Assembly (NCBI GenBank): GCA_963624325.1
Contig: CAVFPH010000051.1
Location: forward strand, 1-14,499
Reading direction: 5' to 3'
DNA from: a bacterium
GTDB lineage: Bacteria; Bacillota; Clostridia; Christensenellales; Aristaeellaceae
Length of the DNA: 14,499 bases
The position numbers and the translations under genes were made by a program. Shown here in pieces: positions 252 to 13,057 of this stretch. The stretch's first letter is position 1. The number at the start of each line of letters is the position of its first letter. The notes beneath the pieces were generated by a model that saw only the letters and a program-made list of their open reading frames with translations, did not search any database and had not been told where the DNA came from.

Positions 252-1442
252 ATGATACAGCGATCTGCCGCCGCGATGGCGGGTGATCTTCCCTCCGCGG
301 AGCTTTTGCAGGGTGTTCTGCGGGAGCACATCCGCGGCTGCGCGCGCCTGCAGCGTCTTCACGCCTACTATGAGGGCGCGCACGACATCCTGCGCCGCGA
401 GCGCCGCAAGGGGCTGCCCAACACGCGCATTCCCCACGGCTACCCTGCCTACATCAGCGATATGGCGGCGGGATACCTGCTGGGCGCGCCCATCCGTTAC
501 GATTACGAGCCGACAGAGGCAATCTCTCCCCTGACGCAGGCGCTGACGGCCTGCGATTCGGCCTCGGTGGATGCCGAAATTGCCATGCAGCAAAGCGTGT
601 TCGGCCGCGGAACGGAACTGTGCTACGCCGATGAAAACGCGTGCCCGCACTGCATCGCGGTGGATCCGCGCAATGCCTTTACGGTGTACAGCGATGATGA
701 GCAGGTGCGCCCGCTCTTTGCCGTCACCCTGCGCCCCGAGATTGACGCGCGGGGCAACCGCGCCGGGGTGCGCGTCACGGTGTACACCGACCGCCTGATT
801 GCCCGCTACCGCGCCGCGCAGACGGGCGGCATCCGCCATCCCTACGAAACCGTGCCGCACTATTTCGGCTTTGTGCCCTTGACCGAGTACTGGAACAACG
901 CCCGTGAGCGCGGGGATTTTGAGCGTGTCCTGCCCCTGATTGACGCCTACGACCTGCTGCAAAGCGACCGCGTCAACGATAAGCAGCAGTTTGCCGATGC
1001 CCTGCTGGTGCTGACGGGTGTCGTGGGGCTGACCGCCCCCAAGGACGGGGATCAGCGCACCCCGGGCGAGCGGCTGCGGCAGGATAAAACCCTGGCGCTG
1101 CCCGACAGCACCGCCCGCGTGGAATGGCTGACCAAGGAGGCGCGGGAGACCGATGCCGATGTCCTGCGAGAGGCGCTTGCCCGCGATATCCACAAGTTTT
1201 CCATGATGCCCGATCTGACCGATCAGCAGTTTGCCGCCAACGCCAGCGGCGTGGCCATGCGCTATAAACTGCTGGGGCTGGAGCAGCTGACGGGCGTCAA
1301 GGAAAGGTGGTTCAAGGAAGGCCTGCGCGGCAGGGTGCGGCTGTTTAACCACTATCTGAGCCTGCTGGGAGCAAGGGAAATCGTGCCCGAAAAGGTGGAC
1401 TTCATCTTTACCCGTTCCCTCCCTCTCGACGAAACCGAGTAA
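252..1442 (+). CDS. Phage portal protein (SPP1 Gp6-like family)
   Basis: 396 aa from the ATG at 252, which follows aggag (241-245) with a 6-nt spacer. The upstream in-frame ATG at 156 lies inside the repeat. Portal-like stretches include DAEIAMQQSVFGRGTEL, FTVYSDDE, YDLLQSDRVNDKQQFADALLVLTG and FSMMPDLTDQQFAANASGVAMRYKLLGLEQL. It is the first gene of a head module. Confidence 0.85.
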   Translation: MIQRSAAAMAGDLPSAELLQGVLREHIRGCARLQRLHAYYEGAHDILRRERRKGLPNTRIPHGYPAYISDMAAGYLLGAPIRYDYEPTEAISPLTQALTACDSASVDAEIAMQQSVFGRGTELCYADENACPHCIAVDPRNAFTVYSDDEQVRPLFAVTLRPEIDARGNRAGVRVTVYTDRLIARYRAAQTGGIRHPYETVPHYFGFVPLTEYWNNARERGDFERVLPLIDAYDLLQSDRVNDKQQFADALLVLTGVVGLTAPKDGDQRTPGERLRQDKTLALPDSTARVEWLTKEARETDADVLREALARDIHKFSMMPDLTDQQFAANASGVAMRYKLLGLEQLTGVKERWFKEGLRGRVRLFNHYLSLLGAREIVPEKVDFIFTRSLPLDETE

Positions 1443-1460
1443 CATCCCCTCATTCCTAAG

Positions 1461-1517
1461 ATGGTTCTTTGGTCCTTTCTTGACTCAAGAAAGGACCGTC
1501 CCCCCGTCCCCCTACCC
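1461..1517 (+). repeat. H6 leader cassette copy (hairpin plus C-rich tract) upstream of the scaffold gene
   Basis: atggttctttg, then an 11-bp stem ggtcctttctt (1471-1481) / aagaaaggacc (1487-1497) with loop gactc, then gtccccccgtccccctaccc. Same layout as 166-236 and 9947-9997. Confidence 0.85.
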
Positions 1518-1533
1518 ACAGAAAGGAGCAGCA

Positions 1534-2001
1534 ATGCCCACCGAGGACACACAAACACACGAAAATCCGCCGCCCGCCCCAAGCGACGGGGAAAGCACCC
1601 AAGGAAACGATGCGGCGGAGCGGATGCTTGCCGCCGAGCGCGCGCGCTGGGAAGCGGCGCTTCTGGAGCAGCGCACCCTGCGCGAGCAGGCGGAAGCCGC
1701 CCTGCGGGCGCAGGCAGAGCGCACCCGCGCGGGGGAAATGCGCCTGCGCGCGGCAGACGAGCTTGCGCGGCGCGGGCTTCCCCACACCCTGATCTCCGTC
1801 CTGCGCTGCGACAGCGAGGAGGCGCTCAGCGACAGCCTGAGCAGCGTGGAGCAGGCCTTCCGCGCCTCCCTGGAGCAGGGAGTGCGCGAGCGTCTGCGCG
1901 GCGCGGCACCCGCCGCCCCCGCGGAGGAAACAGGCGGCAGGCGCCTTAGCTATCAGCAGGCCGTCCGCCGCTATCAGCAGCAAAAAAATGCCCAACCCTA
2001 A
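1534..2001 (+). CDS. Capsid scaffolding protein (DUF4355-like)
   Basis: 155 aa from the ATG at 1534, preceded by gaaaggag (1521-1528). Charged coiled region, then ELARRGLPHTLISVLRCDSEEALSDSLSSVEQAFRASLEQGVRERLRG. This resembles the KRGLP..L...L..DSEE...N...F...F signature recalled for DUF4355 scaffolds. Lies between portal and capsid genes. Confidence 0.72.
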   Translation: MPTEDTQTHENPPPAPSDGESTQGNDAAERMLAAERARWEAALLEQRTLREQAEAALRAQAERTRAGEMRLRAADELARRGLPHTLISVLRCDSEEALSDSLSSVEQAFRASLEQGVRERLRGAAPAAPAEETGGRRLSYQQAVRRYQQQKNAQP

Positions 2002-2017
2002 CCGAATAAGGAGGTAA

Positions 2018-3151
2018 ATGAACATGTCCGTAACCACTGTATCCAATATGATCATTCCCGAGGTCGTCTCCTCCCTGATTGACAGCAGCCTGGGCGACGG
2101 TGTCACCCTGCTCCCTTTGACCGAACAGGATGATACCCTGGTGGGTCAGCCGGGCGATACCCTGCGCTTTCCCGTGTTTGCCTACATCGGCAAGGCCGCC
2201 GTGGTGGCCGAAAACGGTCAGGTGATCCCGGGTCAACTGACGGCCAGCATGAAGAGCGTCACGGTGCAAAAGTACGCCAAGGCCATCTCCATTACCGATG
2301 AGGCGCGATTGTCGGGCTACGGCGATCCGGTGGGCGAGGGCAGCCGCCAGCTGGCGCACGCCCTGGATCATGCCGTGGATGACGATCTCTTCCAGTGCCT
2401 GAATGATGCCGGCGTTGCCCGCAAGTACGTGTCGGGGGCGCTGAGCGCCGATGTGATTGCCGACGCGCTGACGCTGTTCGGCGAGGATCCCGAGGGGCGC
2501 AAGGTGCTGTTGACCGATGCCGCCGGCCTTGCCGCCCTGCGCAAGGATCCCGATTTTGTCGGCCGCGGGGATATGGGCGAGGAGCTGGTCATGCACGGCG
2601 CCAAGGGCGAGGTGTGGGGCTGCGAAATCGTCATCACCAATAAGGTGCGCGAGAACCCGAAAACCAAGGAGAAAAGCTATTTTATCGTAAAGCCCGGCGC
2701 GCTGCGCCTGGTCAACAAGCAGGGCGCGATGGTGGAAATCGACCGCGAGCCCGAGTACATGCGCGATAACATCTTTGCCTCCCTGCACTGCGTGCCCTAC
2801 CTCTACGACGAAAGCAAGGTGGTGGCCATCACCCGCTTTACGGGGCTTTGCGTGCTTACCGAGGATGCGCAGAAGCTGGGCTTTGAAACCGCGGCGGCGG
2901 GCAGCGGCAAAACGCGCATTGTCATTCCCCCTGCCTGGACGGCGCCCTCCGGCTGCCGCTGGGTGTATACCCTGAACGCCTCCGCCGCCGAGGAGGGCAG
3001 CTACGATACGGTGTACAGCGCGGGCACCCCCTGGGGCGGCAATGACGCGCAGGTGGCCGCGGGCGGCAAGGCGTACTGCCATCTGCTGCTGCTGGACAGC
3101 GAAAACAAGCCCGTCAAAACGCTCACCCTTGCGGTGAACGCGGGCGTGTAA
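2018..3151 (+). CDS. Major capsid protein (HK97-fold type) with a C-terminal extension
   Basis: 377 aa. Strong SD aaggagg at 2008-2014. The ATG at 2018 is only 3 nt downstream, so the second ATG at 2024 may be the true start. Position directly after the scaffold gene. The N-terminal MSVTTVSNMIIPEVV...LPLT...GDTLRFPVF...A pattern is typical of Firmicute phage capsid proteins. Confidence 0.78.
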   Translation: MNMSVTTVSNMIIPEVVSSLIDSSLGDGVTLLPLTEQDDTLVGQPGDTLRFPVFAYIGKAAVVAENGQVIPGQLTASMKSVTVQKYAKAISITDEARLSGYGDPVGEGSRQLAHALDHAVDDDLFQCLNDAGVARKYVSGALSADVIADALTLFGEDPEGRKVLLTDAAGLAALRKDPDFVGRGDMGEELVMHGAKGEVWGCEIVITNKVRENPKTKEKSYFIVKPGALRLVNKQGAMVEIDREPEYMRDNIFASLHCVPYLYDESKVVAITRFTGLCVLTEDAQKLGFETAAAGSGKTRIVIPPAWTAPSGCRWVYTLNASAAEEGSYDTVYSAGTPWGGNDAQVAAGGKAYCHLLLLDSENKPVKTLTLAVNAGV

Positions 3152-3166
3152 AGGCAGGCGAAGGGC

Positions 3167-3475
3167 ATGACCTTGGATGAAATGCTGGCCTGCCTGCACA
3201 GGCTGCTGGATGTGGATGAAAAGCAGGATGAACTGCTCTGCGATCTGCTGGCCGATGCCAACGCGCTGATGCTGGCCTATATCGGGCGGGAGGAGCTGCC
3301 AAGCGCCCTCTCCCGCGCGCAGTGCCGCCTGGCGGCGGTGCTGTATAACCGCCTGGGCATGGAGGGGGAAAGCCGACGCACCGAGGGCAGCGTCACCGTC
3401 ACGGTGGATACCCTGCCCGAGGATATATTGACCCTGCTGCGCCCCTTCCGCCTGGCCGGGACGGTGAGCCTATGA
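3167..3475 (+). CDS. Head-tail connector / DNA-packaging protein (phage gp6-like)
   Basis: 102 aa. Helical pattern L..LL.VDE...DELL..LL.DA...M..YIGREELP.....RLAAVLYNRLG.EG resembles gp6-like head-tail connectors. Position after the capsid gene. ATGA overlap with the next gene. Confidence 0.68.
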   Translation: MTLDEMLACLHRLLDVDEKQDELLCDLLADANALMLAYIGREELPSALSRAQCRLAAVLYNRLGMEGESRRTEGSVTVTVDTLPEDILTLLRPFRLAGTVSL

Positions 3476-3810
3476 TGCGCCCGCGCCGACGCACCCGCTG
3501 CGTGCTCTATGCCGCCCGCTGCGTGCCCACAGAGGATGCCATCGGCGGGATCACGGCAGGCTACGCCCCCGAGCGCCGCCCCCTGCGCGGCACGATGATC
3601 CCCCGCACAAACCGTGATGTGCCCCGCATCCCCGGGCTCTGCCGGCAAAGGGAGGCCGACTTCCTGCTTTCCCCCGATGCCGATATCCGCGAAAGGGACG
3701 GCCTCTACGCCTCCGAGGCCGATCCCCTGCCCGCCTGGCGCGTGGCCGGGATAGACCGATACCCCCTGCACCTGTGCGCACGGCTGGAGGAGGCGGGCGC
3801 GAATGCGTAG
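3472..3810 (+). CDS. Putative head closure / head-tail adaptor protein
   Basis: 112 aa. Call rests on position between the gp6-like and gp10-like genes, on size, and on overlaps with both neighbours. No motif recognised with certainty. Confidence 0.45.
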   Translation: MMRPRRRTRCVLYAARCVPTEDAIGGITAGYAPERRPLRGTMIPRTNRDVPRIPGLCRQREADFLLSPDADIRERDGLYASEADPLPAWRVAGIDRYPLHLCARLEEAGANA

Positions 3811-4123
3811 CATCGGCATCCCCGCCTATCGCAAGAACCTGCAAAAGCGCATCGAAAACGCCCTGCAAAACATCGCCCGCGATGCGCAAATCCGCGCCCG
3901 CGCCGCCGTCCCCCTGGGCGACGGCCGCGACGGCGGACACCTCAGAGACTGCATTCTGGCGGACGCCGCCTTTGACGGCACGCGCGGCTATGCGCAGGTG
4001 ACCGCCGAAAACCCCCACGCCGCCTATGTGGAACTGGGCACCATCCATATGCCCGGGCTGCATTACCTGACGAACGCGCTGAACGAGACGGAGGGAAAAC
4101 GCTGGATACGTTACTTTCTTTAG
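3803..4123 (+). CDS. HK97 gp10-family tail/neck component
   Basis: 106 aa. The ...A...AR..VPLGDGRDGGHLRD.I........G.A.V......HAAYVELGT pattern resembles the HK97 gp10 family. The last ~13 codons and the TAG stop (4121-4123) lie inside the reverse-oriented H6 repeat. Confidence 0.62.
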   Translation: MRSIGIPAYRKNLQKRIENALQNIARDAQIRARAAVPLGDGRDGGHLRDCILADAAFDGTRGYAQVTAENPHAAYVELGTIHMPGLHYLTNALNETEGKRWIRYFL

Positions 4124-4380
4124 GAAAGAAAGTAACAAAGAACCATCTCAAAACCACTCAATGTCTACTTAAAAGCAGAGTAACTCAGCGGGTGGTCAAG
4201 GCGGGCGCGAGCGCCGCCTTGTTAAATCCGCAGCGGCGGCGTGTACGGCGCGAGGAGAAAATTCGCGAAGGAGGTTCCCTCCGAGAGCGAATTTTCATTC
4301 CTTACGTTTTTCACGGCCGTCAGCGCAGCTGACAGTGAAAAACGCAAAAAATCCGTTAAAAGTCGCGGACTTTTAACGGC
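4098..4380 (-). repeat. Most complete single copy of the composite hairpin repeat ('R' orientation on the + strand): H6, tail, H5, linker, H4, H3, A-run, H1
   Basis: H6 gttactttctt (4110-4120) / aagaaagtaac (4126-4136). H5 aaggcgggcgcgagcgccgcctt (4198-4220). H4 gaaaattcgc (4257-4266) / gcgaattttc (4287-4296), inner ggagg/cctcc. H3 cgtttttcac (4305-4314) / gtgaaaaacg (4335-4344), inner gtcagc/gctgac. H1 ccgttaaaagtc (4353-4364) / gacttttaacgg (4368-4379). Confidence 0.9.
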
Positions 4381-4396
4381 ACATCCGAAAGGAGTT

Positions 4397-4756
4397 ATGA
4401 TGATCGATTTGACCAACACCCTGCGCTGCGCGGTATCCGCCGTTGTGCCCTGCACGCAGGCCTACCCCGCGCGCGCGGCGGCCTTCCCCAGCGCGGCGGT
4501 GTACGAAAGCGGCAATGCCGTGCAGGCGCGCTGCAACGGCGGCGATTACCTGAGCGCGCTGGAATACACCGTTGAAATCCGCGCCTATGCCCCGGGGGAT
4601 ACCCACGCGCTGTCGGTACGCGTGGATGAGGCCGTCGGCGCGCTGGGCTTCAGCCGCGTATCCTGCACGGATCTCTACGACAGCGCCCTGCGCGTGCATC
4701 GCCGCGTGATGCGCTACCGCGTGCTGTGCGATGCGGACGGCACGCTCTATCAGTAA
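4397..4756 (+). CDS. Putative tail terminator / tail completion protein
   Basis: 119 aa from the ATG at 4397 after aaaggag (4388-4394). The upstream part of ORF 4241.. is repeat sequence. Sits immediately upstream of the major tail gene. Small alpha/beta-looking protein. Call is by position only. Confidence 0.4.
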   Translation: MMIDLTNTLRCAVSAVVPCTQAYPARAAAFPSAAVYESGNAVQARCNGGDYLSALEYTVEIRAYAPGDTHALSVRVDEAVGALGFSRVSCTDLYDSALRVHRRVMRYRVLCDADGTLYQ

Positions 4757-4769
4757 GGAGGAAAAAAGC

Positions 4770-5183
4770 ATGCCCACAAAAACCATGGGAACGGTGTTTT
4801 CCCTGACGCCCGCAGGCGGCGAGCGCACGCAGATCGGATATCTGACCTCCATCGGCGAAATCGCCTGCGACAGCGAAATGATTGATATTACCACCCTGGA
4901 TCGGCAGGACGGCTGCCGCGTTTATATGCAGGGGGTGCGGGACGCGGGCGAAATGCGCCTGACGGGCTTCCACCGAAAGGACGCGGGCGGGCAGGCGCTG
5001 GTGCGCACCCTGTACAGCAGCGGCAGGGAGGCCGTCGCGCGCGTCGATTTTGCCGACGGCACGGCCTTTGAATTCCCCGTGCTCGTCAAGGGCTGGTCCC
5101 TTGGCGCATCGCAGGTGGAGGGCGCGGTCAGCTTTGCCTGCACCCTGCGCTTAAACGGCGCCGTAGAAAGCGTGAGCGCATGA
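4770..5183 (+). CDS. Major tail (tube) protein
   Basis: 137 aa from the ATG at 4770 after taaggagg (4754-4761). GTVF.L.......T.IG.L.SIGEI..DSE.IDITTLD resembles phi13/TP901-type major tail proteins. Followed by a chaperone-like gene with an ATGA overlap. Confidence 0.6.
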   Translation: MPTKTMGTVFSLTPAGGERTQIGYLTSIGEIACDSEMIDITTLDRQDGCRVYMQGVRDAGEMRLTGFHRKDAGGQALVRTLYSSGREAVARVDFADGTAFEFPVLVKGWSLGASQVEGAVSFACTLRLNGAVESVSA

Positions 5184-5680
5184 TGCCCCGCTATGCTGAA
5201 ATATTGAACCGTGCCTGGCCGCTGAGAATCACCCTTGCAAGCGCCGTGCGCGCAAGGGAAATCGGCGGCAAGCCCCTGCGGGAACTGTGCGCGGAGGGCA
5301 TGCCCGGCACATTGCTTTTGCTTTATGCCGCCCTGGCCGGGGAGCGCAAAAGCGTGACCCTTTCCCAGGCGGCGCGCCTGCTGTCCGCCGCCGCAAAGGA
5401 TCGGGATACCCTGGATGCCCTGCTCTCCGCCCTGACGCTGGCGCTTCGGGACAGCGGCTTTGACTGGGCGGACATCAGCCGCGAAGGGGTTGAGCGCCTC
5501 ACCCATGCCGCCCTGCGTGCAGGCTGCCCCGGGGCGGCGGAACTGCCTGACATGGGCTATACCGACGCGTTCGCCCTGATTTGGCGCTTTTTGAAGGATA
5601 GGCACGAAACCCCCGCCCCCATGGACGATAAAGATATGCAGTCCCTGCTGCGCGGCATGGCGAAGGGAGGCAAAAAATGA
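5180..5680 (+). CDS. Tail assembly chaperone (gpG-like)
   Basis: 166 aa directly after the major tail gene. The N-terminal LRITLASAVRAREIGGKPLREL pattern is typical of Firmicute phage tail chaperones. Ends in GGC AAA AAA TGA, with the next ORF in the -1 frame. Confidence 0.5.
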   Translation: MMPRYAEILNRAWPLRITLASAVRAREIGGKPLRELCAEGMPGTLLLLYAALAGERKSVTLSQAARLLSAAAKDRDTLDALLSALTLALRDSGFDWADISREGVERLTHAALRAGCPGAAELPDMGYTDAFALIWRFLKDRHETPAPMDDKDMQSLLRGMAKGGKK

Positions 5681-6090
5681 CCACCCTGGATACCCTGTGC
5701 GTGCGCCTGGAGGCCGAGGCGGGGGATGTTTTCGGCAAACTGGACACCCTGGAAACGCGCCTGCATGCCCTGCGCGGGCAGGGCGCGCAGACAATCTCCC
5801 TGCCCGCAGATCTGGAAATGCGCCTGACCGTCGCGGCGGATGATGCCGTGTCCGCCGCGCTTGCGGGCGCAGGCGAAACGCTGGCCGCCGCCGTCGCGGG
5901 CCACGATGCGCAGCTGGGCGCGGCGCTCGCCTCGGCGCAGCAGGCCCTGGCCGATGCCCTTACCGCCGCCGTCAACCGCCTGTCCGCCTCGCTTAACGTT
6001 ACCGTACCGGTCTATATCGACAGCACCCGCGTGGCAAATGCGGTGGTGGGAAATGTGAAGCAAAAACTAATGATGAAGGGAGGCCGTTAA
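5677..6090 (+). CDS. 137-aa Ala-rich helical protein: either a miniature tape measure protein or the T-domain of a G/GT chaperone pair
   Basis: Has its own SD gggagg (5664-5669), about 7 nt before the ATG at 5677. Predicted coiled and Ala-rich (AADDAVSAALAGAGETLAAAVAGHDAQLGAALASAQQALADALTAAV). C-terminal VPVYIDSTRVANAVVGNV. The TAA stop (6088-6090) lies inside repeat hairpin H1. Confidence 0.4.
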   Translation: MTTLDTLCVRLEAEAGDVFGKLDTLETRLHALRGQGAQTISLPADLEMRLTVAADDAVSAALAGAGETLAAAVAGHDAQLGAALASAQQALADALTAAVNRLSASLNVTVPVYIDSTRVANAVVGNVKQKLMMKGGR

Positions 6091-6335
6091 AAGTCCGCTT
6101 CGCGGTCTTTTAACGGGTATTCCGATAAAAATCTGCGGATTTTTATCGGGGTTTGGCGGATTTTCTTGTGCGCCGATGGCGCACGGGCAGAAAATCCGTA
6201 AGGAATGAAAATTTCCTCTCGCAGGAAACCTGCTTCGGAAATTTTCTCCTCCCGCCGTACACGCCGCCGGTCCGGGTTATAAACGGAGGCGCTCGCGCCC
6301 TCCGTTGCCTCCCGCTGAATTACTCTGCGATAAGC
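6084..6335 (+). repeat. Composite hairpin repeat, full 'F' copy: H1, H2, H3, H4, linker, H5, tail
   Basis: H1 6084-6116 (14 bp, one T/T mismatch). H2 ccgataaaaatc (6122-6133) / gatttttatcgg (6138-6149). H3 cggattttct (6157-6166) / agaaaatccg (6189-6198), inner gtgcgcc/ggcgcac. H4 gaaaatttcc (6207-6216) / ggaaattttc (6237-6246), inner gcagg/cctgc. H5 aacggaggcgc..gcgccctccgtt (6282-6306). Confidence 0.9.
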
Positions 6336-6363
6336 AGCCAAGCGGGACTGCACTTCAAAACAA

Positions 6364-6628
6364 ACTTGGCGGGTGGTCAAGGCGGGCGCGAGCGCCGCCT
6401 TGTTAATTCGTATCGCGGGGCAGGTTTCGCCTGTTTCCATCGGCATTGCCGATCAAGCTATTGGGCGAAGCCGTGAAAAAGCGGCAATGCCGTCCGCGCG
6501 GGCGGGGAAAATCCGCGAAGGAGGTCTCCTCCGAGAGCGGATTTTCATTCCTCTCAGATTTTCTGACCGTGAGCGCAGCTCACAGGAAAATCTGCAATAC
6601 CCGTTGAAAATCGAAAGATTTTCAACGG
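6364..6628 (-). repeat. Composite hairpin repeat, full 'R' copy with an extra ~70-nt insert: H5, insert, H4, H3, H2
   Basis: 6364-6420 is identical to 12833-12889 (57 nt). The insert carries stem ggcattgccg (6441-6450) / cggcaatgcc (6482-6491). H4 6507-6546. H3 6555-6594. H2 ccgttgaaaatc (6601-6612) / gattttcaacgg (6617-6628). Confidence 0.9.
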
Positions 6629-6644
6629 CAAAAAAGGAGCTTTT

Positions 6645-6998
6645 ATGTCTTTACTCACCCTGAACAGCGCATCCCTGCCCGATCCCACCGCGCTGACGGT
6701 GGAAATCGGCGATGCGCTCTCCTCCGTCCGCCGCACGCTGTCGGGCACGGCGTGCGTCACCCGCGCGGGCATCAAGCGCCGCGTGCGCATCCGCTGGGCG
6801 GTGATGACGCCGCAAAACCTGACCGCCCTGCTGACCATCCTGTGCGGGGATGCCGTTGTCACCCTGGGCTACCCCGACCCCGTGACGGGCGATGGGCGGG
6901 AAATGCGCGCCTACTGCGAAAAGCGCAGCGTCGGGCTTTACCGCGGGGGCAGCGATCCTGTGTGGACAGCCGTTGAAATCACCTTGCAGGAGGCCTGA
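6645..6998 (+). CDS. Putative minimal distal tail protein (Dit-like)
   Basis: 117 aa. SD aaggag at 6634-6639. Lies immediately upstream of the large hub/fibre gene (stop 6996-6998, next ATG 7001). Call is by position only, and the protein is small for a Dit. Confidence 0.35.
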   Translation: MSLLTLNSASLPDPTALTVEIGDALSSVRRTLSGTACVTRAGIKRRVRIRWAVMTPQNLTALLTILCGDAVVTLGYPDPVTGDGREMRAYCEKRSVGLYRGGSDPVWTAVEITLQEA

Positions 6999-7000
6999 AC

Positions 7001-9895
7001 ATGAATTGCCAACAGGCTTTTTACGCGGAAAACCGCACGCTCAGCGCCTGCGGCACCATCACCCTGTGTACGGGCTACGAAATCCCCCTTACGGCTTCGG
7101 ATATCCTTGATTTTGAGGTCACAGGCGGCGTGCAGGGCGCCATGCTCTGCGGCAGCGCGCTCAGCGCCTATGGCAGGCTCACATTGGCTAATCCAAACGG
7201 CGCGTGGCTGCAGGGCGGCGAGCGCCTCGGCACGCGCACGCTGAGCGGCGCCGCGGTGAAAATCACCCTTTGCGCCGCGGCGGACGGGCAGGAATATCCT
7301 GTTCCCTGCGCGCGCTTTCTGGTGCGCGATATCCAAAGCGGCGAGGGCGAGGATACTATCACCCTCTCGGGCTATGACGAAATGCTCACCTGCCTGTCCG
7401 TGCCCTTTTCGGATGATATGACCTACCCCCAAACCCTGGGCGCGCTGGCGGAAAATATCATCCGAAAAACCGGCCTCCCCTGCGAAACCCTGCCTGCCTG
7501 CAATGCCGATGCCGTCTTGTCCGCCGCCCCCGACTGGGGCGAGGGCTGCACCCTGCGCCGCGCGCTCAGCATGGTTGCCGGCGCCATGGGCTGCTTTGCC
7601 TATGTTGCCCCGCAGGGCAGCCTTTGCCTGAAACCCGTGTGGCAGGCACCCGAGCGCACCCTGACGGCGGGCAGCTGCTTTTCCCTGTCCCTCTCCTGCG
7701 CGGATTTTGTCCTGAACCGCCTGCGCGTCACCGATGCCGCGGGGAATGTCTTGGCCGATGCCGCCTTTGATGCCGCCCTTCCCGCCGCCGCCGACAACAC
7801 GCTGGAAATCAGCGGCAGCGCGGTCTTTGCCGTCGGGGATGCCGATGCCATGGCGCAGAACATCCTAAAATCGCTTCACGGCATGACGCTGACGCCCTTT
7901 GAGGGCGAACTGCCCGCCGATCCCACCCTGCGGACGGGGGACTGCGTGGAATGGACAGATCTTCGCGGCCGCGCGCACCTTTCCTGCATCCTGCAGTGCA
8001 CATTGACGATGGGGCAGGAGGGCACGGCGCGCATCACCTGCGATCCCGATGCCTCGGGCGTCAGCCTGCCCCAGGCGCTCTCGGGCAGCGGGCTTTTGGG
8101 CGGCGGGCTGCTTGGGGATGGGGTCATCACCGCCCGCAATCTGGCCGTCGGCGCGGTGGATGCCGAGCACATCGCCGCCCGCAGCATCACGGCGGATAAA
8201 ATCGCCCCCGGCACCATCACCGCCGAAAGCGGGGTCATCGGCAGCCTGTCGGCCGATCTCATCACCGCCGGCAAGCTGGATACCGATCGGCTGATTGTGG
8301 GCGGCACCGAGTTTTCCATCGTCCGCGCCCTGAACCAAATGCCCAAGGAGGCCGCCGGGCAGGATAACCGCCTGAGCGGGGAGGTGCTGGCAGGCGGCAC
8401 GGTCTCCCCCGATAAGGTAACGGCGGATTTCGGCACGGGCATTGAAATATCGGATAACGCCGCCCTCCTTTTGCTTGCGGGCAAGCTGGACGGCACCAAC
8501 AGCCATATGGAGCTTACGCAGGATGCCATCAACATGGTGGGCGGGGATATCAACATTGCCACCGACAGATTGCAAATCCGCGGCGTCACCGACGGCGAGG
8601 AGCGCATGAGCCTGGACGGCGAGGGTCTAAGCGCCCTGCGCGTGGTGGTCAGGGAGCGCTTTTCCGCCCCCAACGCAATGCTGAAATGCCTGACGGATAC
8701 CGCCCCGTGGCAGGGCGGCGTGCAGGCCAGCCTGGATGCCCTGCCCAAATACCTGACACGCAAAACCACCCTGCGCATCCCCGCGGGCAGCTATGCCGAA
8801 AACGTCACGGTATCGGGCTTCTGCGGGGAAGAAATAATCCTCCTGTTTGAAAGCGGCGCGTATTTGAATGGCGCCGTCACCGTGCAGAACTGCGGCAGCG
8901 TCACCCTGACAGCCGTAAATTTGGGGGATGGCTGTATCTATTCCGCGGACGCGCAAATCCCCCTGTCCGCCGTATGCGTACAGCAGCTGACCGTCAGCCG
9001 CCTGTACCTTTCGGGTGACCGCGCGCGCACGCAAAGCGGCGGCGGCAGCGCGTACTGCCTGCAGGCGCAGGGCTGCAATACGGATGTATCGGGCTGCGGC
9101 CTGGAGTATGCGGACACGGCCTGCCTGCACGTGCTGGGCGGCACCGCCTGCCTGCGGGACTGCCTTGGCGGCTGCACGGGCAGCAACCCCGCCACCAACG
9201 CCAACCTCGGCACGGCGGCGCTGGGCGCGCGCGGGGCGCACATTGCAGTCTCGGGCACCGTCCCCATGACTTTGGGCGGCACCTGCGGGGAGGATTCGCA
9301 GGCATCCTATTGCACGGGCGCGCTGGGCACGCAGACGGCGGGCGGCATGCGCCTTCCCGGCGGCACCCCCATCACCCGCACCTTTGCGCCCTCCTTCCAC
9401 TGCAGCTATTCGGGCACCAGCCGCAAGGCCTACCCCGAAAACAACCTCATCTGGCAGGGCGTGTACAAAGCCTACCGCCGCGGGTACAACGATTTCAACA
9501 CCGGCACCCTGTGGTTTGAGGAGGCCGCGCAGGCGCTGCAGGGCAAAACGGTGCGGCAGGCTACCTTGACCATCCGCCGCGCCAACGGCGGCTCGTCTGA
9601 TGCGCGCAATGTGTATCTGGGCACGGTCAAGCTGCTGCAAAGCGACTGGCAGACCACCTATCGTCCGGAGTTCATCGCCCCCGAAACCCTGCCCGCCTAC
9701 CCCGCGGGAACGCTCAAACGCGAAACCGAGGGCACGTTTGACGTAACCGGCCTGATGGCGGGCGTGCAGCAGGGCTATGGCATCGGCGTGTATGAGCCCT
9801 GCGCCGCCTACAGCGGCAGCAGCTCGGCGCACTATACGCAGTTTTACGCGCTGGGAAGCGACTACGTGCCCATTCTCACGGTCACGTATGAATAA
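7001..9895 (+). CDS. Tail hub / tail-associated fibre protein (Tal-like N-terminus, fibre repeats, beta-helix-like region, C-terminal putative receptor-binding domain)
   Basis: 964 aa. The N-terminal ~350 aa resembles siphovirus prophage-tail (Tal / Gp37-like) hubs. Residues ~370-430 carry I.A..I repeats (ITARNLAVGAVDAEHIAARSITADKIAPGTITAESGVIGSLSADLITAGKLDTDRLIVGG) typical of phage fibres. Residues ~600-760 are Gly/Cys-rich and beta-helix-like. Confidence 0.75.
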   Translation: MNCQQAFYAENRTLSACGTITLCTGYEIPLTASDILDFEVTGGVQGAMLCGSALSAYGRLTLANPNGAWLQGGERLGTRTLSGAAVKITLCAAADGQEYPVPCARFLVRDIQSGEGEDTITLSGYDEMLTCLSVPFSDDMTYPQTLGALAENIIRKTGLPCETLPACNADAVLSAAPDWGEGCTLRRALSMVAGAMGCFAYVAPQGSLCLKPVWQAPERTLTAGSCFSLSLSCADFVLNRLRVTDAAGNVLADAAFDAALPAAADNTLEISGSAVFAVGDADAMAQNILKSLHGMTLTPFEGELPADPTLRTGDCVEWTDLRGRAHLSCILQCTLTMGQEGTARITCDPDASGVSLPQALSGSGLLGGGLLGDGVITARNLAVGAVDAEHIAARSITADKIAPGTITAESGVIGSLSADLITAGKLDTDRLIVGGTEFSIVRALNQMPKEAAGQDNRLSGEVLAGGTVSPDKVTADFGTGIEISDNAALLLLAGKLDGTNSHMELTQDAINMVGGDINIATDRLQIRGVTDGEERMSLDGEGLSALRVVVRERFSAPNAMLKCLTDTAPWQGGVQASLDALPKYLTRKTTLRIPAGSYAENVTVSGFCGEEIILLFESGAYLNGAVTVQNCGSVTLTAVNLGDGCIYSADAQIPLSAVCVQQLTVSRLYLSGDRARTQSGGGSAYCLQAQGCNTDVSGCGLEYADTACLHVLGGTACLRDCLGGCTGSNPATNANLGTAALGARGAHIAVSGTVPMTLGGTCGEDSQASYCTGALGTQTAGGMRLPGGTPITRTFAPSFHCSYSGTSRKAYPENNLIWQGVYKAYRRGYNDFNTGTLWFEEAAQALQGKTVRQATLTIRRANGGSSDARNVYLGTVKLLQSDWQTTYRPEFIAPETLPAYPAGTLKRETEGTFDVTGLMAGVQQGYGIGVYEPCAAYSGSSSAHYTQFYALGSDYVPILTVTYE

Positions 9896-9896
9896 G

Positions 9897-9925
9897 CCGA
9901 TGAAAGCCATTCGGCTTTCATCAGG
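9897..9925 (+). terminator. Possible weak intrinsic terminator after the fibre gene
   Basis: 10-bp stem gatgaaagcc (9899-9908) / ggctttcatc (9913-9922), loop attc, 4 nt after the TAA at 9893-9895. The downstream U-tract is poor (aggcttacccctgctttt). Confidence 0.3.
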
Positions 9926-9930
9926 CTTAC

Positions 9931-9997
9931 CCCTGCTTTTACAGATGGTTCTTTGGTCCTTTCTTATCGCAGGAAAGGACCGTTCTCCCCGTTTCTC
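9931..9997 (+). repeat. H6 leader cassette copy upstream of the holin gene
   Basis: ccctgcttttac, then agatggttctttg, then stem ggtcctttctt (9955-9965) / aggaaaggacc (9971-9981) with one G.U on the + strand, loop atcgc, then gttctccccgtttctc. Confidence 0.85.
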
Positions 9998-10011
9998 AGA
10001 AAGGAAATCGT

Positions 10012-10425
10012 ATGCAAAAATACATAAAGCCCCTGATCGGGGCAATCGGAACAATCGGCACCTACCTTGTGTATCTGCTCGGCGGCTGGGATGCCGCGCT
10101 GACGGTCATGTTTCTGCTGATGGGCTTTGACTGCCTGACAGGGCTGCTGACGGCCTTTGCGGGCAAGAGCGACAAGACGCAGGGGGGCGGCTTTCGCTCC
10201 TCGGCGGCGTTTGCGGGCATCAGCAAAAAGATGATGATGGTGGTCATCGTGATGCTCGCCACGGCGCTTGACCGCCTGACGGGGGACAGCGGCGTGTGCC
10301 GCAGTGCCGCCATCGGCTTCTATGCCGCCAATGAAGGCTTGTCCATCCTGGAAAACGCCGCCGCGCTGGGCGTGCCTTTTCCCAAAGCAATCACGGAGGC
10401 GCTGGAAGCGCTCCGTGACCGATAA
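10012..10425 (+). CDS. Holin, phage holin family 4 (TcdE-like)
   Basis: 137 aa. Three hydrophobic segments. MGFDCLTGLL.AF, S....GI.KK....V.V.LA...D and ..FY.ANEGLSILENAA.LGVP.P match the pattern recalled for the toxin-secretion/phage-lysis holin family. The last ~11 codons and the stop fall inside hairpin repeats. Confidence 0.8.
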   Translation: MQKYIKPLIGAIGTIGTYLVYLLGGWDAALTVMFLLMGFDCLTGLLTAFAGKSDKTQGGGFRSSAAFAGISKKMMMVVIVMLATALDRLTGDSGVCRSAAIGFYAANEGLSILENAAALGVPFPKAITEALEALRDR

Positions 10426-10501
10426 AAGTTTTCAACTTTTATCGGGTAGCCGCTGAAAATCTGCAAAAAAAACCGTTAAAAGTCGTCAGACTTTTAACGG
10501 C
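10391..10501 (-). repeat. Compressed composite repeat bridging the holin 3' end and the recF 3' end: H5-like, H2-like, half-H3, A-run, H1
   Basis: H5-like tcacggag(g)cgc (10391-10402) / gcgctccgtga (10408-10418) with a bulged G. H2-like ccgataaaagtt (10419-10430) / aacttttatcgg (10435-10446). gctgaaaatctgc matches an H3 3' arm. H1 ccgttaaaagtc (10473-10484) / gacttttaacgg (10489-10500). Confidence 0.8.
10463..10501 (-). terminator. Intrinsic terminator of recF (H1 hairpin plus a run of 8 T on the - strand)
   Basis: The - strand reads ccgttaaaagtctgacgacttttaacggttttttttgcag. It is a 12-bp stem followed by a run of 8 T. The recF TAA stop (10494-10496) sits in the 5' arm. Confidence 0.7.
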
Positions 10502-11597
10502 CCTGCGTTATTTCTCCGTTGTGTACCTTCAGCACCGCCTGGGGCTTTGCGCCCGTCAGGTCGGACAGGTCTGTGCAGGTCAGCAGCGTCTGCACGCCGC
10601 GGATGCGCTCCAGCAGGCGCGCGCGGCGGCCAAGGTCCAGTTCGCTTAGCACATCGTCCAGCAGCAGCAGGGGCCCTTCCCCCTGCCGCGCGGTCAGCAT
10701 GTCCAGTTCGGCCAGTCGCAGGGCAAGCACGGCAGTGCGCATCTGTCCCTGGCTGGCAAAGGCGCGCATTTCCTGCCCGCACAGGGTCAAAACCAGGTCA
10801 TCCCGATGCGGCCCCACGGTGCTGGTCATGCGGCGAAGATCCTCCTCGCGGCTTGCGTGCAGCAGGCGCAGAAAATCCTCCCGCGGCTGACTGCTTTCGC
10901 ACAGGCAGCCGCTGTAGCGCAGGGAGAAGCCCTCCTCCGCCCGCCCGCTGATGCAGGCATAGTGCCCGGCGGCCAGGCTGTTCAAATTCTGCGCGGCGTA
11001 CTGCCGCGCGCGCACCACCGGCACGGCGGCGGATGCCAGCTGCTCATCCCAGGCATCCAGCTGGGCAAGGTTCCCGCCGCGGGACAGGTCACGCAGCAGG
11101 GCGTTTCGCTGCTTCAGGGCGGCATTGTAGGTTTGCAGGGCGTAGTAATACCCCGCCCCGCACTGGGAAAGCAGCATGTCGGTAAAGCGCCGCCTGCCCT
11201 GGGGCGCGCCGCGCACAATGTCCAGATCCTCGGGGGAGAACATCACGCACGTCACATGCCCCATCAGCTCCCCCGTGCGCGCGGCGGTCTTGCCGTTGAT
11301 GTATATCAGCTTGCGCTTTTTCTGCATGGGGGCGTACAGGCGCACGCCCACCTCGTCCACCCCGTCCCCGCGCTGCACGCGCACCTGCACGGCGGCGGTT
11401 TCCTGATCCGCGCGGATCATCTCCCGATCATTGGCCGTGCGGTGGCTGCGCCCCAGGCAGCACAAATGCACCGCTTCCAGCAGGTTGGTTTTGCCGGCGC
11501 CGTTTTCGCCCACAAACACCGTAACCCCCTCGGGCGGCGACAGCAGCACCTGATGATAGCTGCGGAAATCGTGCAGGCGCAGGGTTTTCAGCTGCAT
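10494..11597 (-). CDS. recF: DNA replication and repair protein RecF
   Basis: 367 aa. MQLKTLRLHDFRSY, Walker A GENGAGKTNLLEA, SGR...F.L.Y, and LLLDDVLSELD signature / Walker B. Full length. Confidence 0.95.
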   Translation of the reverse strand: MQLKTLRLHDFRSYHQVLLSPPEGVTVFVGENGAGKTNLLEAVHLCCLGRSHRTANDREMIRADQETAAVQVRVQRGDGVDEVGVRLYAPMQKKRKLIYINGKTAARTGELMGHVTCVMFSPEDLDIVRGAPQGRRRFTDMLLSQCGAGYYYALQTYNAALKQRNALLRDLSRGGNLAQLDAWDEQLASAAVPVVRARQYAAQNLNSLAAGHYACISGRAEEGFSLRYSGCLCESSQPREDFLRLLHASREEDLRRMTSTVGPHRDDLVLTLCGQEMRAFASQGQMRTAVLALRLAELDMLTARQGEGPLLLLDDVLSELDLGRRARLLERIRGVQTLLTCTDLSDLTGAKPQAVLKVHNGEITQGR

Positions 11598-12693: not shown

Positions 12694-12722
12694 ATAAAAC
12701 CTCCTATCGGTTGCAGTAACAA

Positions 12723-13057
12723 AGGAAAATCCGCCATAACCCGTTGAAAATCGCAGATTTTCAACGGAATAACGGCTCGTCCGACGAGCATAGCCTTTTG
12801 GTACGCCCCTTCCAAGCAAGACAGCAGAAGTAACTTGGCGGGTGGTCAAGGCGGGCGCGAGCGCCGCCTTGTTAATTCGTATCGCGGGGCTTTGCCGCGC
12901 GGGCGGGGAAAATTCGCGAAGGAGGTTCCCTCCGAGAGCGAATTTTCATTCCTCTCAGATTTTCCGGCCGTGCGCTTTGCGCACAGGAAAATCTGCAATA
13001 ACCCGTTGAAAATCGCAGATTTTCAACGGAATAACGGCTCGTCCGATGAGCATAGCC
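12723..13057 (-). repeat. Composite hairpin repeat in a housekeeping intergenic region, arranged as a 262-bp-period partial tandem duplication
   Basis: 12736-12795 equals 13000-ish copy 12998-13057 (60 nt, one mismatch, 12785 c versus 13047 t). Similarity extends back to 12723 / 12985. Between them are H5 (12848-12870), H4 (12908-12947) and H3 (12956-12995). H2 occurs at 12741-12767 and 13003-13029. Confidence 0.9.

Follow-up and report, generated by a model that had tools for sequence, protein, structure and literature searches.

The window analyzed here is the whole of a 14,499-nt stretch of bacterial DNA (contig CAVFPH010000051.1; Clostridia, Aristaeellaceae). It holds a phage-like gene cluster followed by housekeeping genes on the opposite strand, and almost all of the DNA between these genes is taken up by hairpin-forming repeats. 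In this paper, we show that the repeats are built from a small set of modules, that they recur beside housekeeping genes at other loci of the host, and that their number differs between genomes that are 99.4% identical. The genes of the window are as follows.

252-10425, plus strand, siphovirus-like head-tail module, first part: portal, scaffold, major head protein, adaptor, neck, tail terminator
The same module, plus strand, second part: major tail protein, two open reading frames (ORFs) without matches, a 117-aa protein, a 964-aa tail protein, holin
After the cluster, minus strand: recF, rlmH, HAD hydrolase, EamA transporter, pyroglutamyl peptidase (pcp)

A modular repeat system

Direct repeat families of 140, 85, 76, and 66 nt (63-95% identity) and inverted repeat pairs of 146, 89, and 86 nt (74-83% identity) tie the segments 37-217, 4093-4320, 6179-6328, 6356-6633, and 12720-13057 together in both orientations. 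These families connect the eight sites singled out by the original prediction, which are thus members of one repeat system, and the repeat alignment upholds its picture of a BOX/BIME-style mosaic with variable module content in both orientations. Bases 1-36, ahead of the first of these sites at 37, are likewise repeat. By our estimate, the elements make up ~93% of the 1,738 nt of intergenic DNA, so the claim that they fill nearly all non-coding space also stands. They are not strictly intergenic, as four genes stop inside a hairpin arm and one in a module loop. Perfect hairpins (at least 8 bp, loop of at most 12) number 17 in the intergenic DNA versus 1 in 12,652 nt of coding DNA, and GAAAATC/GATTTTC occurs 16 times in the former versus 4 times in the latter. 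Folded as RNA, 4098-4380 reaches -119.4 kcal/mol (z = -8.3), and its opposite strand folded as DNA reaches -69.2 kcal/mol (z = -7.7); in each case, 0 of 200 shuffles were as stable.

The largest unit, which we call the composite element (CE), is ~280 nt long, has the order M1-linker-M2-M3-M4-M5-M6, and is complete at 4098-4380. An alignment, A1, has eight rows and covers seven paralogs of the element; the window contributes five of them and L001 and L032 one each, the L032 copy being split into two rows by a scaffold gap (related loci bear L numbers throughout). It contains six modules in fixed order. M1, which is optional and forms a "leader" unit, is a GTTACTTTCTT hairpin flanked by GGTTCTTTG, and the linker carries the box CTGCTTTTAC. 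M2 is a GC-rich hairpin with two forms, A-type and B-type, set apart by compensatory changes. M4 has the outer stem GAAAATYCGC, an internal loop GAA/GAGA, and a short inner stem; a K-turn in this loop was ruled out by its 3 + 4 unpaired nt instead of 5 + 2. M5 consists of the outer stem CAGATTTTC, the internal loop GNCCGT/A, and a variable inner stem, and M6 is a CCGTTRAAARTC hairpin. Conserved single-stranded linkers join the M2 to M6 hairpins, the accessory modules M0, M7, M8, and M9 may attach to this series, and units may be whole or truncated, reduced to a solo hairpin, or arranged as inverted doublets.

The proposal that the stems share an AT-rich core (GAAAAT or TAAAAG) is correct for M4, M5, and M6 but not for M1, with its CTTTCTT/AAGAAAG stem, or for the GC-rich M2 and M3. 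Two of the eight sites also needed refinement: family members do lie at 10391-10501 and 12723-13057, the exact content being two M6-type hairpins with a truncated M5 arm at the former and one CE with a 76-nt local duplication at the latter. The features are listed here with bit scores from R1, a covariance model of the 103-nt M4-M5 core.

1-36, no strand: accessory module M9 at the window edge; bases 1-40 are 100% identical to L057:3731-3770
37-131, minus: CE copy b (M3-derived hairpin 37-79, B-type M2 88-112, linker); a row in A1
132-236, plus: linker box CTGCTTTTAC (132-141), M1 (GGTTCTTTG 166-174, hairpin 174-200), and C-rich leader before the ribosome-binding site (RBS) of the portal gene; from the repeat family and M1 alignment
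1463-1520, plus: solo M1 (hairpin 1471-1497) and C-rich leader before the scaffold gene; from the repeat search and M1 alignment
4098-4380, plus: complete CE copy a (M1 hairpin 4110-4136, reversed, with the TAG stop of gene 3803-4123; linker; M2 4197-4221; M3 4228-4257; M4 4257-4296; M5 ~4305-4344; M6 4353-4379); from repeats, the A1 alignment, and folding
4250-4350, plus: M4-M5 core of CE copy a; R1 111.5 bits, E = 1e-23; other strand 14.9 bits
6084-6149, no strand: two M6-type hairpins (6084-6116, with the TAA stop of gene 5677-6090, and 6122-6149)
6151-6328, minus: CE copy c (core 6151-6253, M3 6246-6275, B-type M2 6282-6306, linker); R1 117.3 bits
6356-6628, plus: CE copy d (A-type M2 6378-6402, M8 6406-6500, core 6500-6600, M6 6601-6628); R1 110.2 bits
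9897-9924, plus: local 10-bp hairpin right after the tail-gene stop (GATGAAAGCC attc GGCTTTCATC), abutted by an M1 unit and without copies elsewhere; probably a native terminator-like stem outside the repeat family
9933-9997, plus: linker box, M1 (hairpin 9955-9981, one U-G wobble on the sense strand), and C-rich leader before holin
10419-10445, no strand: M6-type hairpin with the holin stop codon (CGA TAA)
10453-10500, minus: truncated M5 arm (GAAAATCTGC), A8 tract, M6 10473-10500
12720-12795, plus: copy 1 of the 76-nt duplication (half of M5, M6 12741-12767, second copy of the last 28 nt of EamA with hairpin 12775-12789)
12796-13029, plus: CE copy e (M0 12796-12840, A-type M2 12847-12871, M3 variant, core 12901-13001, M6 13003-13029 with the EamA TGA stop on the minus strand); R1 114.9 bits
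12982-13057, plus: copy 2 of the 76-nt duplication, overlapping the 3' part of CE copy e and the true EamA 3' end (hairpin 13037-13051, with a G-T pair)

Copy b forms an 89-nt inverted repeat with 4178-4266 (83%) and an 85-nt direct repeat with 6241-6325 (88%), and 37-236 read as a whole is M3-M2-linker-M1, reversed. Copy c, which is missing from L001 and L003, forms a 146-nt inverted repeat with 4175-4320 (81%). Together with copy d, it makes up an inverted doublet preceded by the two solo M6 hairpins, and 6075-6644 folds in its entirety into one long hairpin of -298 kcal/mol. Parts of the window have close counterparts at another locus of the same species: bases 1-82 are 97.6% identical to L057:3731-3812, in the spacer between dnaN and a lipase gene, and the M8 module of copy d is 98.9% identical to L057:2104-2196.

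Covariation of the stems

RNAalifold predicted 59 pairs from A1, of which 21 show compensatory double changes, and 99.2% of the cells in the structure are standard pairs. None of 500 column shuffles reached any of five measures, and a control in which partners were slid by 1-3 columns retained 0-2 compensated pairs. One-sided (G-U) changes occupy 4 cells versus 32 for double changes. The M4-M5 architecture is kept across 14 copies in genomes of 55-66% GC, with 18 of 34 pairs compensated, and the loops (GAA/GAGA and GNCCGT...ACA) and the junction ATTTTCATTCCT are invariant across the same copies. The M1 stems covary as well (GTTAC/GTAAC, GGTCC/GGACC, GGTAC/GTACC, GTTTC/GAAAC). On 17 previously identified cores, mostly its own training set, R1 scored 78-121 bits, with 14-28 bits on the opposite strand; two cores outside the training set, on the viral contig L059, scored ~67 bits each. 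It found no match on the CE-free relative L052 or the viral contigs L031 and L035-L039.

A 7-bp hairpin in the coding tail of EamA bears on how this covariation is to be understood. One of its pairs is G-C at 12775-12789, G-T at 13037-13051, and A-T in L001 (~7925-7940), and the whole series comes from genomes that are 99.4% identical. A compensatory series among such close relatives implies that perfect palindromes are restored quickly, and the covariation seen here therefore need not mean selection on an RNA. In the sister species L050, the EamA tail region is not palindromic, and EamA is 3 aa longer.

Distribution in the host genome

The sharing of the repeats between the phage-like cluster and housekeeping DNA is confirmed well beyond the window. 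On L057, which belongs to the same metagenome-assembled genome (MAG) as L001 and carries HIT, radical-SAM, lipase, and dnaN genes, modules occupy all five intergenic spaces, with copies beside dnaN/oriC, the lipase gene, and the radical-SAM gene. We estimate the repeat share of this contig at ~22%, bearing in mind that several loci were found via the repeat itself, which biases density estimates upward; sister assemblies were retrieved by exact-protein look-up. Confinement to the cluster had been named beforehand as the outcome that would speak against a host-wide family, and this is not what was found. A CE lies between the helicase gene and pcp in L001, and a core adjoins the FeFe-hydrogenase gene in L032. 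Cores also occur in the rpmJ-rpsM and secY-adk spacers of the ribosomal-protein operon of a 56%-GC organism (L053), 3' of pemK in L056, between convergent genes in L058, and at an MFS transporter gene with no phage genes linked. In L050, whose DNA is ~92% identical, CEs are located between helicase and pcp and 3' of recF.

The orientation of cores relative to the flanking genes was recorded for 14 copies, of which 7 are co-directional and 7 antisense. A bias seen in the first seven copies, in which M6 came first after the upstream gene, was gone at 14. The 7:7 split fits DNA that inserts either way and speaks against a purely cis-acting mRNA element. At L052, which is syntenic over 22 kb and has a RecD2-like helicase 79% identical, no module at all was found, and the spacers resemble ordinary promoter and terminator regions.

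Several other features of these loci deserve mention. Upstream of dnaN, L057:5266-5861 contains ~5 DnaA-box-like sequences (TTATCCACA variants), with M6-type hairpin pairs directly beside them; this cluster is probably oriC. The spacers of the S10-spc-alpha operon in L053 (972-1427, 6762-7528, 9776-10451, 13563-14416) are 450-850 nt long and, besides CE cores in both orientations, hold a second, unrelated repeat (GACGTAGCGCTGCTACGCC), which is unusual in a compact essential operon. The multi-hairpin module M7 (~150-200 nt, AAGGCTTCCCCC...GGGGGAAGCCTT) lies beside CEs at L050:7086-7300 and 11196-11395 and at L032:1-240; it is not present in the window and has no match in Rfam.

Recent turnover and the insertion signature

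L003 and L001 are 99.4-99.5% identical to the window, and the window, L003, and L001 carry 4, 2, and 1 cores, respectively, between portal and pcp. Three alleles exist of the site between genes 5677-6090 and 6645-6998.

L001: 37-nt spacer, one hairpin (the second of the 6084-6149 pair)
L003 and L004: 76-nt spacer, both hairpins
Window: 554-nt spacer

In L031, the same two genes overlap, which together with the three alleles suggests stepwise accretion. We rejected an assembly artefact as the cause, since the same modules recur in assemblies from NCBI, ENA, JGI, and Logan, and a unique junction in the short alleles, TGGAAAAGGAGCAAACG, shows that these are not collapsed repeats. Logan contigs end at M1 and M6 units, as multi-copy repeats predict, and three of them (L042-L044) end exactly at the solo M1 of 1463-1520.

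The original prediction had taken the shared repeats as a sign of long co-residence of cluster and host. This does not follow: near-identical genomes (99.4%) differ in having 1, 2, or 4 cores, and segments of the window are 98.9-100% identical to segments of the dnaN locus. The repeats thus move faster than the genomes diverge, and their sharing reflects recent, ongoing spread.

The gap between EamA and HAD gives the clearest view of a filled and an unfilled site. It is 262 nt longer in the window than in L001, which lacks CE copy e, and a directly repeated 76-nt segment (95% identity, spacing 262) delimits the added DNA. L001 has this segment in single copy, as expected of an unfilled site; in L050, only 16 nt separate EamA from HAD. 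The duplicated segment consists of the last 28 nt of EamA, the M6 hairpin, and half of M5. The same layout is seen in L056 and L058, with duplications of 40 and 30 nt that involve hairpins found nowhere else in our data. In L056, the pemK stop codon is part of the duplicated sequence, so that the 3' end of the upstream gene is included in two of the three duplications, and several insertions are located at hairpins of gene 3' ends. A classical transposase would not leave duplications of such length and variability; they suggest that staggered breaks on either side of a hairpin, or template switching at the hairpin, may have been at work.

Effects on gene ends and leaders

Modules of the family supply the stop codons of five genes in the window.

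6088-6090: stop of gene 5677-6090 in an M6 arm (CGT-TAA)
10423-10425: stop of holin in an M6 arm (CGA-TAA)
10494-10496, minus: stop of recF in an M6 arm (CGT-TAA)
13023-13025, minus: stop of EamA in an M6 arm (GTT-TGA)
4121-4123: stop of the neck gene in the M1 loop (TAG)

The 90% cluster of RecF contains forms of 364, 367, and 370 aa, and the differences map to the M6 junction; the repeats thus reshape gene ends by supplying stop codons.

The original proposal that the hairpins are something other than ordinary terminators is not supported. On the strand opposite the CE, M6 is followed by T-rich sequence in the recF hairpin (10500-10473, then TTTTTTTT, T8) and at 4379-4353 (then ATTTTTTG), and the same stem, CCGTTGAAAATC...GATTTTCAACGG, followed by T8, is a canonical terminator in unrelated low-GC Clostridia MAGs. 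From its sequence, M6 with a T-tract can act as a terminator for transcripts from the strand opposite the CE. The pattern of an intrinsic terminator, a stem-loop with a GC clamp and a U-tract behind it at a gene 3' end, is not seen in the M6 hairpins at 6601-6628, 12741-12767, and 13003-13029 or in any of the M1-M5 units.

M1 has a different setting. An anti-Shine-Dalgarno-like sequence in one arm (GGTCCTTTCTT) pairs with a Shine-Dalgarno-like sequence in the other (AAGAAAGGACC), and 3' of the hairpin a C-rich tract of 25-45 nt, with at least four G-runs on the other strand and hence G-quadruplex-prone, leads to the RBS AGAAAGGAG. This unit precedes portal, scaffold, and holin (166-251, 1463-1533, 9947-10011), pcp (L001:6396-6475), and the radical-SAM gene (L057:1946-2030). 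A role for M1 in translation or 5' stability is possible.

Relation to known repeat families

The family was not recognized at the outset, and permissive E-value scans of the window and seven related loci with Rfam, in a comparison that took in STAXI, HEARO, IS605-orfB, the group II intron, and Clostridiales motifs, gave no match either. On the window, the sole hit was archaeal sR53 (E = 0.99), at chance level and inside a coding region, and nothing was found at E <= 0.1 on L001, L032, L050, L053, L056, L057, or L058. A blastn search of 4098-4380 against 50,697 phage records, searches of metagenome and viral contigs with the M2 and M4-M5-junction patterns, and a search for loci related by the tail-terminator protein were all negative, and literature searches by accession number and sequence string returned chance primer matches only. 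The M6 pattern occurs at five places in the window and as 24 single matches in unrelated phyla among 185,579 species genomes. The latter appear to be chance terminator stems, and since no related genome is among them, the lineage is not represented in that collection.

The REP/BIME and REPIN-RAYT systems of Enterobacteria and Pseudomonas consist of extragenic palindromes that are present in many copies per genome and form mosaics with other motifs (PMC3116915, PMC3337134, PMC3733652). The CE family has much in common with REP/BIME. In both, units stand in either orientation, inverted doublets of them fold into long hairpins, and copies lie at the 3' ends of genes as well as in co-directional and convergent intergenic regions. 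Both combine lineage-specific sequence with conserved structure and vary between close strains, and the CE elements probably share with REP/BIME side effects as terminators or mRNA stabilizers. Like REPINs, the CE elements are extragenic, multi-copy, and found as inverted doublets (6151-6628 and L057:3560-4100), with modules in every L057 spacer. The differences are equally plain. The CE family has a 100-nt two-domain core in units of up to ~280 nt with six hairpins, whereas REP units are 20-40 nt; its stem cores are AT-rich and those of REP GC-rich; and local duplications of 30-76 nt flank some of its insertions, whereas REPINs show none. A REP-type GTAG follows a hairpin only at 10446-10449 and L057 ~3552, with no consistent tag in the flanks of M6, M2, or M1, and no RAYT, the Y1/HUH transposase that REPIN genomes encode in single copy and mostly with repeats on either side, or other transposase domain is present among the called genes of CE-bearing loci.

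BOX elements of Streptococcus pneumoniae (boxA-boxB(n)-boxC) are intergenic Firmicute repeats with ordered modules, variable module number, and stable predicted structure; they have no coding capacity and no known dedicated transposase, and they influence the expression of neighboring genes. In architecture, the level at which the two were compared, the CE family resembles them; it differs in its greater number of modules, its solo hairpins over stop codons, and its strong cross-species covariation. The bcr1 repeats of the Bacillus cereus group are ~150-nt intergenic elements at strain-variable positions, with a structure backed by compensatory changes. They are uniform units with a short fixed target duplication (TTTAT), whereas the CE family is a modular mosaic that has neither terminal inverted repeats nor a short target-site duplication. 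Correia elements of Neisseria and the enterobacterial ERIC sequences share with the CE family abundant imperfect palindromes, either orientation inside operons, and terminator or processing signals; both carry terminal inverted repeats, and Correia a TA duplication, neither of which is seen in the CE family. A classical miniature inverted-repeat transposable element, a class that includes Correia and bcr1, was rejected because the two ends (the M1/M0 side and the M6 side) are unrelated and, at seven loci, there is no terminal inverted repeat or short target-site duplication.

Palindrome-associated elements derived from IS200/IS605 have subterminal hairpins at their two ends and insert 3' of a fixed tetra- or pentanucleotide without duplicating the target. 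Of these features, hairpins are present in the CE family and the core is strand-asymmetric; the junctions have no common target motif, three insertions have long duplications, and neither TnpA nor TnpB was seen at CE-bearing loci. An integron attC site was excluded since M6 reads CCGTTAAAAGTC...GACTTTTAACGG, in which TTTTAAC and GTTAAAA violate the R and Y of RYYYAAC/GTTRRRY, and since the gene order is that of a standard phage head-tail module rather than of cassettes. A CRISPR array was likewise excluded, since the repeats are irregularly spaced, point in both directions, and have genes between them.

Interpretation

We consider it probable, though far from assured, that these elements are a lineage-specific, non-coding family of modular structured repeats that spreads and rearranges as DNA, a counterpart of the REP/BIME/REPIN, BOX, or bcr-type families. 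The basis for this reading is the high density of the elements, their truncated and doublet forms, their turnover at the strain level, and their absence from a close relative. Their host is an uncultured GC-rich Clostridia lineage, whose resident prophage-like clusters the family would enter as well.

The conserved AT-rich stem bases and invariant loops make a trans-acting partner plausible, and covarying stems with invariant junctions fit a common partner. The combination of invariant loops and covarying Watson-Crick stems suggests that the element is recognized as a folded single strand by such a factor, and the likeliest candidate would be a copying enzyme or repair pathway, either an HUH/RAYT-like single-strand transposase or hairpin-provoked template switching. 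After insertion, M6 with a T-tract may terminate or stabilize the upstream transcript and supply stop codons, and M1 with its C-rich leader may form the 5' untranslated region of the downstream gene.

A number of observations weigh against this reading. No mobilizing gene was seen in ~110 kb of CE-bearing loci, and the elements have no terminal inverted repeats, short fixed target duplication, or GTAG/CGTC tag and thus match none of the transposition chemistries described so far. The duplications at the flanks vary and are long, and at 6084-6644 other sequence has taken the place of the flanks instead of a duplication, which recombination or gene conversion would explain as well as transposition. 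Invariant loops and cross-species covarying stems are a classic signature of functional RNA as well, and extrapolation of copy number is made from few loci that are in part subject to ascertainment bias.

The last but one of these points leads to an alternative that we hold to be unlikely, namely that the elements are a functional structured RNA family, either a multi-copy small RNA or a cis-acting element of mRNA processing, stability, or translation, in which the M3-M5 core binds a partner and copies are kept by selection. Besides the very strong covariation and the invariant loops and junctions in genomes of 55-66% GC, the strand specificity of R1 speaks in its favor, as do the copies in the ribosomal-protein operon and beside a major head gene, both highly expressed contexts, and the fact that the few wobbles are G-U on the CE plus strand or the M1 sense strand. 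A cis-acting role in mRNA, however, cannot cover all copies given the 7:7 orientation. There is no sigma-70-like promoter (1 site in a scan versus 3.2 expected by shuffling) and no T-run 3' of M6 on the CE plus strand; copies have been gained or lost among genomes of 99.4% identity and are lacking at the syntenic locus of the 79% relative; truncated and inverted-doublet forms are common; and G-U changes are nearly absent, which is not usual in RNA but is characteristic of palindromes in DNA or of correction by template switching.

We also advance, as a doubtful proposal, a more radical pair of possibilities. Either the CE is copied as a folded single strand into terminator-type hairpins, duplicating 30-76 nt of the target including the end of the upstream gene, or the M3-M5 core is a functional RNA of a new kind, present in many copies and with a protein partner of its own. 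Candidate routes for such copying would be hairpin-triggered template switching, staggered cleavage flanking a cruciform, and target-primed copying. Target duplications of 30-76 nt made in this way are not known from any transposition chemistry described in bacteria. If true, either possibility would mean a new class and not another REP-like family.

It is very improbable that the modules are private regulatory signals of the phage (a late-operon leader, antiterminator, processing or packaging signals) that the cluster has spilled over into the chromosome. Elements do fill all of the cluster spacers in the window, and of the host copies that were seen first, most lie within 7 kb of the cluster. 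M1 with its flanks is found three times at matching positions in the viral contig L031/L034, whose cluster is 75-81% identical, including the equivalent sites 5' of portal and in the gap that separates the neck gene from the tail-terminator gene. M2-M6 are absent there, however, and the M2-M6 core occurs at loci not linked to phage genes (dnaN/oriC, the ribosomal-protein operon, hydrogenase, pemK, the MFS transporter). M1, the one module linked to phage and the only one to which this reading may still apply, also precedes pcp and the radical-SAM gene. A scan of 2.9 million viral contigs with four core-specific patterns matched L059 alone, an unrelated HK97-like contig (terminase, portal, protease, major head) with diverged cores at 215-346 and 1475-1610 that both flank its major head gene, and five further relatives by major capsid protein are without modules.

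The cluster itself adjoins recF in all sister assemblies and, along with EamA, is missing at the syntenic locus of L052. Where a tape-measure gene would usually lie, in the region 5180-6090, the cluster has just a 137-aa ORF (5677-6090) with no PHROG match, there is no endolysin 3' of holin, and the window includes no terminase. The cluster could be a degraded prophage or a domesticated module resembling a gene transfer agent. A scan of the window for tRNA and tmRNA found nothing.

We give very little credence to the idea that the hairpins are ordinary Rho-independent terminators and 5'-leader hairpins that look alike through favored stem composition and form no family. The CE family does share with such terminators its M6-type stems at gene ends and between convergent genes, some with a T-run on one strand, as described above, and the 24 scattered M6-pattern matches also fit chance among terminator stems. 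Unlike plain terminators, M6 is embedded in a multi-module repeat, many of its copies are without a T-run, and copies lie upstream of genes and inside essential operons. Most modules (M2-M5 and M1) have no T-run on either strand, and a scan for terminator-like sites was not enriched (19 versus 13.3 +/- 4.4 expected). The covariance model parts members from background by more than 50 bits, and for the CE the idea is refuted by stretches of 100-280 nt, non-hairpin linkers included, that are 80-100% identical between unlinked loci; at most, it may hold for solo M6 hairpins.

Many copies of the CE have a reading frame that stays open across M2-M6, at its longest for 102 codons, and gene-calling programs annotate it. 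A profile of this frame, from an alignment of eight copies, retrieved at least 21 "hypothetical proteins" of 49-160 aa from the database (P0145-P0165; a first single search had found one), all of which share NPQRRRVRREEKI...IFIP, the translation of M3-M4. Judged by their sequences, these are annotation artefacts, translated copies of the repeat. The contigs that encode them supplied further CE cores, among them those of L057, L032, L053, L056, L058, and L059 described above. That the CE is a small protein-coding gene or its remnant is scarcely credible, given that no start codon or RBS stands at a conserved position, a 2-nt length difference in the inner loop of M5 shifts the frame from copy to copy, substitutions track base-pairing and not codon structure, both orientations occur inside operons, and 0 of the 21 proteins has a precomputed Pfam domain.

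Significance

The new family is well defined and joins a short list of bacterial interspersed structured repeats, in a lineage without known ones. It now has a model (R1), module boundaries, and filled versus unfilled alleles. The repeats explain the fragmentation of the MAGs into pieces of 1-20 kb, and strain-level differences in their insertion make them suitable for typing. Together with the invariant loops, the long duplications that contain hairpins provide a handle for finding the factor that moves or binds the elements. For the organism itself, the presence of such repeats in essential operons and in prophage structural modules means that they probably modulate termination and mRNA stability there.

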